This document shows, piece after piece, positions 1,462-16,143 of a stretch of 16,143 nt of DNA (positions are counted from its first letter, which is position 1; each line of letters opens with the position of its first letter). The translations under genes were made by a program, and so were the position numbers. Below the pieces are notes generated by a model. It saw only the letters and a program-made list of their open reading frames with translations, was not told the origin of the DNA and did no database searches. Source of the stretch: a virus (taxonomy: Duplodnaviria > Heunggongvirae > Uroviricota > Caudoviricetes); the IMG/VR virus record IMGVR_UViG_2660238511_000011, one strand, 5' to 3'.

Positions 1462-1579
1462 ATATGTCCTTTTACCACTACATCAAGTCATTGATTCGAT
1501 CAAACAATTTTCATTGAAAAAGTGCCAAAAATCGCAAATTGACTACACCATTAACTACACCGTTCGGTGCACTGTATGA

Positions 1580-1615
1580 AACAACGTGGAACAAATAGAC
1601 ACAAGAAATATACAG
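1580..1615 (+). promoter_or_regulatory. Copy A of the repeated motif AACAACGTGGAACAA followed by 10-bp-phased (C)ACAA repeats
   Basis: The 15-mer at 1580-1594 is identical to 9138-9152. AACAA-like units start at 1580, 1590 and 1600. Confidence 0.4.
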
Positions 1616-1970
1616 GCGGGTAATCTTTCCAGGGGGAAGCGCACCAATTCATGAGGGGCGTTAATGTCGATATGGGGATCCCCATAACGGGGCTACCGGA
1701 TTTTTTTTCCGGTTAACCTTTAATCAGGCTGGTGGGTTTTACATACCCTTGATCACCGTAATGATGATCCAGATGTGCACCTTTTCCACCAATGGCGGAA
1801 AAGCTCCAACCGTAACGATGATCGCTATGGTTGCCTCGATGGTCTGCGTGGTCATTATGACCGTTCAGCCAGTGACCTTAATCAGAATTTTTCGCTAAAA
1901 AATGACGTTGGCCACGTCATCCGGAAAGCACAAAATCACGTCGATTTTTAATGAACGGTTAAACCGTCTT

Positions 1971-2010
1971 TTTGTCACGGTGTGTCACTGGTTGTCACTC
2001 TCCGTCACGA
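1971..2010 (+). repeat. Four direct GTCAC repeats at exact 10-bp phasing
   Basis: GTCAC at 1974-1978, 1984-1988, 1994-1998 and 2004-2008. The aligned decamers are tttGTCACgg, tgtGTCACtg, gttGTCACtc and tccGTCACga. Confidence 0.45.
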
Positions 2011-2257: not shown

Positions 2258-2539
2258 TTACCGCCGTAACCGCTCCGGCTTCTTCCAGTGGTACGTGATT
2301 TTCTCCTTCTCCCGATACAGTTCAACGCGGCGATTGTAGGCCAGCATTTCCAGAACGCGGATCCGTATGTCGCGCATATCCGCATCATTAAGCTGGATAC
2401 CATCACGGCGCATCACCTCAGCAACAACACGCGCATAATTTTCGGCTGTCACGCTGTCCGGCTGCGTGGTCTGTTCGTCAGCCTGCTGGCTGATTCCAGA
2501 GACGCGGCGGATTAATCGCAGTATTTCGGCTTCTGTCAT
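2258..2539 (-). CDS. Hypothetical protein, 93 aa, last gene of the packaging operon
   Basis: ORF begins 13 nt after the terL stop, with a GAGGT-like ribosome-binding site about 8 nt upstream of the ATG. No family recognised. Confidence 0.5.
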   Translation of the reverse strand: MTEAEILRLIRRVSGISQQADEQTTQPDSVTAENYARVVAEVMRRDGIQLNDADMRDIRIRVLEMLAYNRRVELYREKEKITYHWKKPERLRR

Positions 2540-4214: not shown

Positions 4215-4816
4215 GCTCGTCCTCTTCTTCTGTTTCCGGTGGATTTTTACGGCGGCTTATCGGGTCAAAACCGAGCAAGGAGGCCATTTTTATCATCACT
4301 CTTTCAGCGTCGGATTTTGCGCTTAATGCGGGGTTTCTGCTCTCGCCGCCCTGACTGTTAACAATGCTGAACCCGCGCGCCGCAAGGTCTGCAACGGCTT
4401 TCCGGTAAATGGAGTAGTTGACGCAATACAGTTCCAGATTGCTCCAGTCGGCGGGGGTCAGGTCTCCCCGTTCCGCAAGCTGCCGCGATTTTTCCCGCCA
4501 CTGCTTCACGGCGATATCATCCAGGTAGGCGGGGGCGGGGTTGTCCTGAAAAAGCCCCCCNNNNNNNNNNNNNNNNNNNNNNNNNNNNNNNNNNNNNNNN
4601 NNNNNNNNNNNNNNNNNNNNNNNNNNNNNNNNNNNNNNNNNNNNNNNNNNNNNNNNNNNNNNNNNNNNNNNNNNNNNNNNNNNNGGTTAATCGCTTCGCT
4701 GTGATGCGTTCTGCGCGTCCTGACGCTTTATCTTTATGCCCTGTTTCCTGTGTCTTCCATGCGTCACGCTGCCTTATAAGTCCACGGATAAGGCGGTTTT
4801 GTTCCCGCTCATTCAT
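4198..4816 (-). CDS. terS: Terminase small subunit, P27-family-like, interrupted by an assembly gap of 124 N
   Basis: The C-terminal part (4198..4560) reads PAPAYLDDIAVKQWREK...LELYCVNYSIYRKAVADL...GGESRNPALSAKSDAERVMIKMASLLGFDPISRRK, typical of P27-family TerS. The reading frame is open up to the gap edge. An N-terminal fragment (ATG at 4816, MNEREQNRL...) runs in frame into the other gap edge and overlaps the HNH stop. Confidence 0.6.
4561..4684. other. Assembly gap (124 N) inside terS
   Basis: Run of N characters. Confidence 0.99.
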
Positions 4817-5545: not shown

Positions 5546-5943
5546 TTTTCCGCGCCCTCACGACAAAGAATTTCAAGGCGTGTCCTGGCGGCATCCGGCA
5601 GCGGCTGCCCGATGATATTCAGTACACGCCCCGCCAGCGNNNNNNNNNNNNNNNNNNNNNNCAGCGGCTGCCCGATGATATTCAGTACACGCCCCGCCAG
5701 CGGCCCCGTACTGACCTTTATCCGGCTGGTGGCGTTGATGTCCTTCCGGTACCGTATCCAGATCCTTACGGTACCAATCGCCAGCTCTGCGCCCGATGAA
5801 ATGGCCTCCTTGCTGCTGACCATGTTCACGCTTGCCCAGAGTGTGTGACCGTCCTCCCACGTTTCGAGTATTTCGCCGGTTATATCCCTGGTCTGTTTCA
5901 GGGTCTGAATCGTTATCCTGTCACGCAGTCGCCCTATGTTCAT
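5542..5943 (-). CDS. Head-tail adaptor / head-closure protein (SPP1 gp16-like); contains a 22-N gap flanked by a duplicated 41 bp
   Basis: MNIGRLRDRITIQ...WASV...VRIWIRYRKDI pattern. The likely start is the ATG at 5943 overlapping the portal stop. The ORF track start at 5985 is probably an upstream extension. Confidence 0.7.
   Translation of the reverse strand: MNIGRLRDRITIQTLKQTRDITGEILETWEDGHTLWASVNMVSSKEAISSGAELAIGTVRIWIRYRKDINATSRIKVSTGPLAGRVLNIIGQPLXXXXXXXXLAGRVLNIIGQPLPDAARTRLEILCREGAEK
5640..5661. other. Assembly gap (22 N) flanked by a perfect 41-bp direct repeat (5599-5639 and 5662-5702)
   Basis: N-run; the identical sequence cagcggctgcccgatgatattcagtacacgccccgccagcg lies on both sides. 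Confidence 0.95.
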
Positions 5944-7764: not shown

Positions 7765-8094
7765 TTAATCGTCGTCTTCCGGCAGTGCCAGAATCTTGAT
7801 CGCGTTCGAATCCACCACGCCACCGCCTAAATATTTTTGCGTGAAAATTTTGATGAATCCTGGTTCTGTCAGGTTGTCCGGTCTGGTGCGAACACCTGTT
7901 TCGTGATCAACAATGTAGTAACCGCGTTTGAAGTCACCCAGGGCAATAACGTTATCAGGCATAAACTCCAGATATTCGACCGGAAGGCCCAGCAACGTAT
8001 CAGGATCACCCGCCTGTAAACGGTCGCGCCAGATATAATCACCGTTCGCGTTCTTCACCTTCTGAAGTTTTGCCGCCGTCGTGGAGTTAACCAC
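7765..8094 (-). CDS. Major capsid protein (HK97 fold), C-terminal fragment downstream of an in-frame TGA
   Basis: Same frame as ORF 8095..8970. Translation VNSTTAAKLQKV...TLLGLPVEYLEFMPD continues the capsid protein. Confidence 0.8.
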   Translation of the reverse strand: MVNSTTAAKLQKVKNANGDYIWRDRLQAGDPDTLLGLPVEYLEFMPDNVIALGDFKRGYYIVDHETGVRTRPDNLTEPGFIKIFTQKYLGGGVVDSNAIKILALPEDDD

Positions 8095-14913: not shown

Positions 14914-16143
14914 TTATTTTCTTCTGGCTACTGGTAGCGTGGTTACGTTTTCATGTGTTCCCGCCAGTATCCCTAACCGCTCCGTCCACATATCCAGCGC
15001 ATTGCGTTTAGCATCCAGATAACGGGAATGATTATAAACTCGCTGCATTCCTGGCATCTGGTGGCCTGTAAGCTGCTCCACGACGTGAGGATCCACGCCT
15101 AAATCGTTCAGCATCGTTGTAAAGGTGCGCCGGATGTCATGTAGTGACCAGTGAGGGTGATTTAGCCTCCTGTGCGCTAATCTGCCGTACTGCGACACGC
15201 TTGTTTCCTGTTTCACTTCCCCCAGCAATAAGCCCGTGTGCCTGTTCTGCTCCACCAGCTGCGTGACGAACGGCAGTATTGCTTCCGGTATGGGCCGGAA
15301 TATTGCCACCTTCGTTTTGCTGTGTTCTTTCGGCACGGTCCAGAGCATTTCGGTAAAATCCCACTCGCTGATCTCCGATAACCTCAGTTCTACCGTCCGG
15401 CATCCGAACACAATCAGGAGGCGGATTAACGCGATGTAGTAGGGGGAGAATATTTTTTTGTCCAGTGCCTGCAATAATTCGCCCAGTTCTTTGGTGCTTA
15501 AGACACGCTCGCTTATATCCGGTTTTTTCCCAACGTCCGCCACACTCATATCATCAAGAACGTTGCTGATTGCATAGCGCCGCCTCCGGCAGAACTTAAG
15601 CGCCTGTTTGCACGTCTGTAGCAAGAATCCGGCAGTAACAGGCGTTCGCTTTGCCACCTGGTCAAAACAGGCCAGCCAGTGCCGTAGCTCGCATTTATCC
15701 AGCGGCATAGCACCAATGTGCTGTATTACGTGATTATTAAGGCGCTTTTTCAGGGCGGCATAATCCACGCGGTTTTCCTTTGCGTACGACTCAAGCCAGT
15801 AGGTGAGCGCATCGCCAACCGTTACCGGCTTTAACGCTTCCTGTACGGTGTAATTAAGCTCATGACGTGGATTTTTCCCCTCTGCCAGCCATGCGCGACA
15901 CTGGGCGGCTTTTTCCCTGGCTGATTTCAGGTTCAGATCAGGATAATTTCCCAGCTTAATGCGTTCCGGTGGTGCCCCCCTTCCCGTTCCGGCCCTGTAA
16001 GTGAAATACCAGGTTAAAAGGCCACTGGTTGAATGCCTGACGCTCAGGTTTCCACCGTCATTAAGAAAGGCTGTTTTTTGGGCGGGTGTGCCGTTGATTT
16101 TCCTCAGCTGTGTATCGCTCAGTTTGTTAAGTGCTCTGCTCAT
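14914..16143 (-). CDS. int: Tyrosine recombinase / integrase, P4 family, 409 aa; start codon is the last 3 bases of the window
   Basis: N-terminal arm-binding-type domain (LSDTQLRKI...GGNLSVRHSTSGLLTWYFTYR...), C-terminal catalytic region with HDIRRT and the tyrosine-containing RVYNHSRYL. Confidence 0.9.
   Translation of the reverse strand: MSRALNKLSDTQLRKINGTPAQKTAFLNDGGNLSVRHSTSGLLTWYFTYRAGTGRGAPPERIKLGNYPDLNLKSAREKAAQCRAWLAEGKNPRHELNYTVQEALKPVTVGDALTYWLESYAKENRVDYAALKKRLNNHVIQHIGAMPLDKCELRHWLACFDQVAKRTPVTAGFLLQTCKQALKFCRRRRYAISNVLDDMSVADVGKKPDISERVLSTKELGELLQALDKKIFSPYYIALIRLLIVFGCRTVELRLSEISEWDFTEMLWTVPKEHSKTKVAIFRPIPEAILPFVTQLVEQNRHTGLLLGEVKQETSVSQYGRLAHRRLNHPHWSLHDIRRTFTTMLNDLGVDPHVVEQLTGHQMPGMQRVYNHSRYLDAKRNALDMWTERLGILAGTHENVTTLPVARRK

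Follow-up and report, generated by a model that had tools for sequence, protein, structure and literature searches.

What is the role of a short, strictly phased array of GTCAC repeats near one end of a phage satellite? We addressed this question for the array in IMG/VR virus record IMGVR_UViG_2660238511_000011, a stretch of 16,143 nucleotides that is referred to here, at its full length, as the window. The window is E. coli/Shigella chromosome containing phoQ, which is followed by a capsid-forming phage-inducible chromosomal island (cf-PICI), a satellite inserted between phoQ and roxA. The array is located ~500 bp inside the integrase-distal end of this island, where it follows the last gene of the late operon. 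It is real and modular, with constrained cores, and is independent of the integrase, the replicon and the packaging type of the island that carries it. We tentatively interpret it as an orphan origin-type iteron site that is predicted, from sequence comparisons, to be bound in trans by a phage initiator. On this view the array would be a cis-acting site, and E. coli PICI and cf-PICI satellites carry it as an optional cassette in their variable integrase-distal end. We call the site orphan because the satellite encodes no matching initiator, and we infer both which protein would occupy it and with what effect.

The earlier note on this DNA had pointed out four GTCAC repeats at a 10-bp phase between positions 1971 and 2010, which was borne out by the coordinates and by shuffling analyses. 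The four cores are present on the plus strand at positions 1974-1978, 1984-1988, 1994-1998 and 2004-2008, with a start-to-start distance of exactly 10 bp. The array and the elements directly to its left are the following.

1974-2008, plus strand: GTCAC array of four cores with spacers GGTGT, TGGTT and TCTCC, and with TTTTT directly 5'
1964-1973, plus strand: left anchor, consisting of CCGTC and a T-tract (4-6 Ts in relatives), which is always located directly before the array
1955-1967: small hairpin ACGGTTAAACCGT, overlapping the left anchor

The T preceding GTCAC (TGTCAC), also seen in the earlier note, is present in three of the four units. As a word, GTCAC is not enriched in the window (25 occurrences vs 25.7 expected). 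Its phasing is beyond chance: the pattern of three phased GTCAC copies, allowing up to one mismatch, has two overlapping matches in the window and was present in none of the 200 dinucleotide-preserving shuffles. The array is present as a single copy. Its spacers all differ from one another, and therefore the array is not a product of recent slippage. To the left of the array, CCGTC and the T-tract form the only part that is kept across different left flanks. In both flank types the sequence directly 5' of the array consists of ~33% GC over 45 bp plus the T-tract, without a pronounced AT block.

A 50-amino-acid open reading frame (ORF) with a TTG start, VTVCHWLSLSVT..., runs through the array on the plus strand (1972-2124) and is without support as a gene. 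We also considered that the array might be an RNA element in a 3' untranslated region. This was rejected: there is no Rfam match at E<=1 and the array itself is unstructured. The fold z-score of -4.25 of the region comes from neighbouring hairpin modules and not from the array.

Of the 5,426 complete E. coli genomes, 228 contain the array block, at 255 chromosomal places in total and with no copy below 90% identity. Array-bearing islands among the loci compared occupy four different insertion sites: roxA/phoQ, clpS, yifB and yejO. Its spacing is conserved in related islands, which contain the same block with four or five units and in which the 10-bp register is always kept. Comparison of ten cassette haplotypes revealed that none of the 20 positions in the GTCAC cores is variable, against 3 of the 15 spacer positions and 37 of the 126 columns (29%) in the left flank (Fisher's exact test: flank vs core, P=0.002; flank vs array, P=0.014). 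Moreover, in the five array variants all four variable sites are located in the spacers (P about 0.026), and units are always gained or lost as whole steps of 10 bp. The invariance of the cores, together with the changes in 10-bp steps, argues for a constraint on both the cores and the phase, and we regard this as evidence, at the level of sequence, that the array is under selection. A separate search with the anchor pattern CCGTCTTTTN{0,2}GTCAC gave mostly chance matches, the pattern being too short.

A comparison of 60 related loci showed that the end region in which the array is located is modular, and is composed of an att-proximal arm, the cassette, a stack of palindromes and the stop of the last gene, ORF93.

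~1470-1835: att-proximal arm, common to most islands
~1836-2037: facultative cassette, consisting of the left flank and the array, with a clean presence/absence polymorphism between homologous islands
2038-2257: five modules of the type 'variable palindrome + conserved tail', located between the array and the ORF93 stop; none is present in the basal form
2258-2539, minus strand: ORF93, last gene of the late operon, a homolog of c1504 of EcCICFT073 and a member of phrog_1561 (function unknown)

Three islands (L253, L259 and L283) match the window along 1470-1835 and resume at ~2038, meaning that exactly the cassette is missing, and alignment breakpoints in related islands are located at 2009 and 2038. 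In the apparent basal form (L003, L004, L043, L068 and L143), 6 bp separate an array of five units from the ORF93 stop; across basal forms this distance is 6-16 bp. In other forms, a degenerate GTCGC accompanies four units, or exactly one 10-bp unit has been lost, leaving four. The array block is kept in at least three different left or right contexts. No DNA match to the end region was found in the phage collection.

The palindromes of the five modules differ (GCGCATTTTTGCGC, CCTCAAATTGAGG, CGAAAATTTCG, CCTCAGATGTGAGG and AGCGCAATTTTGCGCT) and are followed by a semi-conserved tail, for instance TTTCCGAAAATATCA..GGGTTAG, the last copy of which overlaps the 3' end of ORF93. The number and order of the modules vary among islands (L001-L004, L327 and most ORF93 loci). 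One of the palindromes resembles a lambda ori iteron, TCCCTCAAATTGGGGGA. The modules could be plus-strand terminators or recombination scars.

ORF93 is the only gene that always adjoins the array, and it stays the last gene in islands with three different packaging modules. Fifty ORF93-bearing islands were usable for comparison, of which 24 contain the array and 26 do not. No island gene is present in all 24 array-positive and absent from all 26 array-negative islands. The best association was obtained for an ORF of 101 amino acids, present in 12 of the 24 array-positive islands vs 1 of the 26 array-negative ones (uncorrected P=2e-4), which probably reflects linkage within one island lineage. 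In the window this ORF is located at 9760-10065 on the minus strand; it starts with MSEPKFGEKFYKHNGRITILQ... and has no Pfam match.

We then screened IMG/VR and metagenomes with the exact pattern GTCAC(N5)x4; the counts given in this and the next paragraph cover the matches listed. At least 187 distinct arrays of four phased GTCAC copies were obtained. Those of the satellite type are always located downstream of an ORF93 homolog. A total of 132 arrays lie within an ORF of at least 90 amino acids, and every recurrent annotated PHROG family among these ORFs is a replication initiator: phrog_3729 (25), phrog_1408 (17), a DnaD-like loader (9), phrog_9474 (9) and several O-like/replisome-organiser families. 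The largest group besides the satellites consists of at least 31 E. coli viral contigs that contain six GTCAC units, with spacings of 10, 10, 10, 11 and 11 bp, plus one inverted copy. In these contigs the array is located in the 5' part of a 345-amino-acid gene, after cI/cro/YdaS/YdaT-like genes and before a lambda-P-like loader. The encoded protein belongs to phrog_1408 ('replication initiation protein') and has a DnaT-type C-terminal domain; among named phages that carry it, including Evi, Tritos and vB_EcoS-640R1, it is annotated as replication protein O or replisome organiser.

Since the repeats themselves encode a shared peptide, the repeat-encoded residues were masked before an iterative search with hidden Markov models (HMMs). 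After masking, 50 of the 132 ORFs formed one homologous superfamily, in which GTCAC is always on the coding strand and the copy number is 4-6 in 48 of the 50 arrays, the two outliers having 11 and 18 copies. In a Qin-like prophage variant, four units are kept across an in-frame indel of 21 bp. The same arrangement is present in an unrelated GC-rich phage (L027), between the genes for SSB and the DnaB helicase. A period of 10 nucleotides places the motif in all three reading frames, and hence it is the DNA that is constrained. This agrees with the established location of lambdoid origins within the gene for the initiator. Judged by these gene contexts, phased GTCAC arrays outside the satellites are overwhelmingly origin iterons inside phage initiator genes. 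In such genuine initiator genes, the GTCAC repeat yields a VT..H..S.. peptide. The same architecture with a different motif is present in phage HK106 (L328), where the replication gene gp51 contains, at 32680-32780, two sets of three TTGTCCAACGG at an 11-bp phase followed by an AT-rich stretch; these repeats are presumably its origin.

The likeness to phage origins is the basis of our tentative interpretation of the satellite array as an orphan iteron site. The earlier note had proposed a helically phased array for cooperative binding. This part of the proposal fits the invariant cores, the 10-bp steps and the phage iterons; both binders that it named do not fit, as is set out below. In the mechanism that we envisage, early genes would be expressed, in the cell containing the satellite, from an infecting lambdoid phage or an induced prophage with Evi/Tritos/Qin-like replication. 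The O-like/replisome-organiser initiator of this phage, which normally acts on the 4-6 GTCAC repeats present at a 10-11 bp phase within the initiator gene, would occupy the 4-5 units of the satellite cooperatively, on one face of the helix. Binding might have either of two outcomes. The loader and DnaB might be recruited, so that initiation driven by the phage would provide the satellite with an extra, helper-coupled origin; or the initiator might be titrated or sequestered on the satellite. It is possible, if doubtful, that a subset of E. coli satellites thus carries a portable mimic of the origin of a helper or competitor phage, acting as a second origin fired by the helper or as an initiator sink that damps phage replication.

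Searches with tblastn and with family HMMs revealed no initiator homolog in the window or among the proteins of sister islands, including ORF93, and no coding remnants of an initiator flank the arrays. A GTCAC-type initiator is present in 2,186 of the 5,426 E. coli genomes (40%), in 634 of these at 90% identity or more. Array and initiator occur together in 124 genomes vs 92 expected (union of hits 2,290; hypergeometric P=8e-6). Finally, a satellite variant (L002/L029) and E. coli phage iterons have a 16-mer, GTCACGGCGTGTCACT, in common.

Several observations weigh against an origin-type site served by a phage initiator. The excess in co-occurrence is small and could be explained by phylogeny, and 46% of the array-bearing genomes lack a resident prophage of the cognate type. 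The cassette is absent from the studied prototypes, EcCICFT073 and the O157 island, and HK106, the known helper of the prototype cf-PICI, has no GTCAC array (its ori contains TTGTCCAACGG). The T-rich flanks of the satellite units do not fit the pooled profile of the phage iterons: they score -2.5 to -4.6, whereas random GTCAC sites of the window average -2.0, the pooled profile being shaped by coding and GC content. Array-negative islands contain no iterons of other initiators at the position of the array, and the AT-rich stretch beside the array is short and modest. Lastly, the link with the phage iterons consists of a 5-bp core plus the phase, and the comparison set was itself found by a search for GTCAC.

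The alternatives are discussed with reference to the following elements of the window.

1470-1490: chromosome/island junction, just past the phoQ stop
1538-1615, plus strand: probable att-arm recombination sites, consisting of paired ATTRACTACACC (1538-1561) followed by phased GAACA-type repeats
10380-10620: origin of replication of the island itself, an AT-rich core surrounded by RTCTACC/GGTAGAY iterons (at least 11), which are present in both orientations
10629-12377, minus strand: D5_N/primase-helicase, the replication protein of the island
14914-16143, minus strand: tyrosine integrase with an N-terminal Arm-DNA-bind_3 domain, at the far end of the island from the array

The array might be bound by a protein of the satellite or the host, with ORF93 as the prime candidate, and function in regulation at the 3' end of the late operon, in maintenance of the excised circle or in an accessory packaging step. 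We consider this rather unlikely. It would account for the constrained cores, for the conservation of ORF93 as the last gene and for its presence upstream of every satellite-type array listed, and ORF93 has a basic C-terminal tail. However, ORF93 does not need the array, which is missing from about half of the islands that contain it (26 of 50). Moreover, it has no Pfam domain, its AlphaFold model is of low confidence (pLDDT, predicted local distance difference test, of 68) and gives no significant structural match, and it falls in a PHROG of unknown function only, for which reasons we rejected it as a recognisable DNA binder. That ORF93 is a relic of the DNA-binding domain of an initiator was also rejected, because there is no HMM match. 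No other island gene co-varies perfectly with the array, and a literature search on GTCAC repeats gave nothing relevant and no E. coli regulator with a phased GTCAC site. A host regulator of the OmpR/PhoB family, controlling a nearby promoter, is extremely unlikely. The island adjoins phoPQ and regulators of this family typically bind direct repeats about one helical turn apart, but the array moves with the satellite to unrelated chromosomal sites. The resemblance to a PhoB-like box of winged-helix response regulators suggested in the earlier note did not hold: the array consists of GTCAC at 10 bp, against CTGTCAT at 11 bp for PhoB, and its motif and spacing are also unlike the PhoP, CreB and TorR boxes. 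There is no promoter-like site downstream of the array; the only one detected within 1440-2600 is located upstream, at 1738-1765. A box of this family would be expected to overlap, or to lie upstream of, the -35 element of its target promoter, whereas what directly adjoins the array in the basal form is the end of a convergent gene, with its stop codon. Arm-type sites for the island integrase, or sites for AlpA or an excisionase, which the earlier note had offered as an alternative, are very unlikely. The array is located in the integrase-distal end, where the P-arm Xis/Int sites of lambda lie, the integrase has an arm-binding domain, and excisionases often bind three or four helically phased direct repeats. 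Yet the array is present as a single copy, and in every island examined 500-700 bp separate it from the junction, whereas sites of this kind are expected within roughly 200 bp of the recombination core. It does not co-vary with the integrase: it is missing from islands with a 97-98% identical integrase (L271 and L308) and present with integrases of 87-100% identity at the four insertion sites. Furthermore, a separate att/integrase motif, pairs of ACTACACC, is present on both island arms. The ATTRACTACACC pair plus GAACA/CGAACA repeats occur in the same orientation at ~70-140 bp from both junctions in the near-identical island L001 and in EcCICFT073 (L327), and the paired motif has 5 matches vs 0.57 expected. 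These blocks are likely, from their sequence and position, to be the arm-type and/or directionality-factor sites of the PICI family. In L001, copies of the paired motif block are located at 16240-16320 and 31575-31650.

That the array is part of a packaging site, bound by the small terminase or Rpp as cosB-like R elements or as a pac site, is an alternative to which we give hardly any credence. In its favour, the array follows the terminase genes, phased repeats are bound by small terminases, and the left flank has short matches (TTTTCGCTA and ATGACG) to the sequence right of cosN in lambda/EcCICFT073. The presence of the array, however, is independent of the terminase type: among islands with 99% identical TerL some contain it and others, such as L253 and L259, do not, and it is also present in DUF1441/Rpp-type islands. 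There is no cosN near the array, although cosB-type elements would be expected about 50-170 bp from one. In L282, L289 and L315, cosN sites identical to that of lambda are located on either side of rpp and upstream of ORF93, as in EcCICFT073, and the array is downstream of ORF93. That the left flank is a degenerate lambda-type cos was rejected as well, since alignment to the EcCICFT073 cos places a 22-nt gap over cosN. The island's own origin was also excluded. The RTCTACC iteron field of the window is located directly downstream of the primase gene, and such a pri-ori layout is functional in EcCICFT073 (PMC6092414). Island L001 contains a RepA helicase as replicase and CTCACTT iterons at the same position, yet an identical GTCAC array. 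Thus, the iterons of the islands change with the replicase and the GTCAC array does not, and hence the array is not their own origin. It is improbable, finally, that the array is a functionless relic, captured from a phage origin by recombination or made by slippage, that hitch-hikes in a recombination-prone region. Such a relic would be in line with the mosaic, indel-rich surroundings, with about half of the islands and the studied prototypes doing without the array, and with all carriers being closely related E. coli/Shigella elements. It is at odds with cores that are invariant against 29% variable columns in the cassette flank, with the presence of the array in several contexts and with the lack of coding remnants; slippage alone, moreover, would make the spacers identical.

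The rest of the window is organized as follows. The phoQ ORF occupies positions 1-1461, with its stop at 1461. All 5,426 complete E. coli genomes match the window up to ~1470 only, and islands at other loci match from 1491. Island L001, nearly identical to that of the window, is bounded by phoQ and roxA, with roxA beyond the integrase. On the minus strand, the island encodes ORF93, TerL, a P27-family TerS, an HNH nuclease, head-tail proteins, the portal, an HK97 protease, the major capsid protein, the D5_N primase-helicase, a DUF4222 protein and the tyrosine integrase, which is the gene set of cf-PICIs (bioRxiv 10.1101/2022.09.08.507074). EcCICFT073, the prototype PICI of Gram-negative bacteria, occupies the same roxA-phoQ site; its c1504 is its last gene and c1503 is rppA. 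ORF93 and the array are 100% identical to a Shigella flexneri chromosome (L005). A scan of genome contigs with ORF93 as the query gave one Shigella locus only, and no tblastn match to ORF93 was found in named phage genomes.

Some additional features of these islands are worth recording. The major capsid gene of the window (7765-8970, minus strand) contains an in-frame premature stop at ~8092-8094 (..KNAV*VVN.. vs ..KNAVWVVN.. in L001), and this satellite copy is probably unable to make its own capsid. The Chi sequence GCTGGTGG is present 13 times in 16 kb vs 0.59 expected, nine copies being on the minus strand, and none of 200 shuffles reached 13; sites include 1728, 2918, 5725, 6170 and 7174. 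This density is several-fold over the E. coli average, and the excess may shield satellite DNA, in linear or concatemeric form, from RecBCD. Positions 4561-4684 and 5640-5661 are masked as runs of N, the first of which is in the HNH-terS intergenic region. With HK97-type HNH-dependent terminases, cos is expected between HNH and terS (PMC6739421, and general background), and the masked run 4561-4684 covers the expected cos position of such a packaging module. In EcCICFT073 (L327), two lambda-identical cosN sites, GGGCGGCGACCT, flank rppA in inverted orientation, at 17559 (plus strand) and 18298-18309 (minus strand). The one upstream of rppA is part of a lambda cosQ-cosN-cosB-Nu1 layout, and L282 and L289 are arranged alike.

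In the papers searched, we found neither this array described nor a phage-type origin cassette on a PICI with its own replicon. Origin iterons as such are already known; what would be new is their presence as an orphan, optional cassette on satellites that have their own replicon. Cross-talk between PICIs and their helpers is understood for induction, capsid size and packaging, and satellite replication is assumed to be autonomous (pri/rep-ori). If our interpretation is right, the array would represent an interaction at the level of replication, a counterpart of the cos/pac piracy of satellites, and it would help to explain which phages mobilise which islands. Besides, the survey shows phased GTCAC to be a practical sequence signature for origins located inside the genes of a very diverse superfamily of phage initiators.

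The array can be compared with several known systems. It shares the GTCAC core, the direct orientation and the 10(-11) bp phase with the in-gene iterons of lambdoid and replisome-organiser phages (lambda ori in gene O; the Evi/Tritos/Qin-like group, phrog_1408/3729). The number of copies is also similar, 4-6 in the in-gene iterons of the Evi/Tritos/Qin-like phages and 4-5 in the satellites, as is the constraint at the DNA level. Unlike these in-gene iterons, the satellite array is non-coding, has no initiator gene beside it, has T-rich flanks and appears to lack a marked AT-rich unwinding element. A cluster of iterons away from the initiator gene has a parallel in SPP1, whose gp38 recognises direct repeats in two places: oriL, which is part of the gp38 gene, and oriR, at a distance from it (PMC6316719). 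The SPP1 oriR, however, is located on the genome of the initiator itself, whereas the satellite array would be served in trans on a different mobile element. Like the array, the pri/rep-ori of PICIs and of Staphylococcus aureus pathogenicity islands (SaPIs) is a short iteron cluster for a replication initiator on a satellite; it differs from the array in that it is located elsewhere, has another motif in both orientations and an AT-rich core, and co-varies with the replicase. The arm and Xis arrays of lambda-type attP sites are also phased direct repeats in the integrase-distal arm, but the array is too far from the core, occurs only once and does not co-vary with the integrase, and the islands have a separate arm motif at both ends. 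Finally, in P4, in cos-SaPIs (helper cos) and in the cos1 of Rpp-PICIs, a small cis site gives the satellite access to the machinery of the helper (PMC6739421, PMC6092414). These known borrowed sites of satellites serve packaging (cos/pac), whereas the site that we propose would serve replication.

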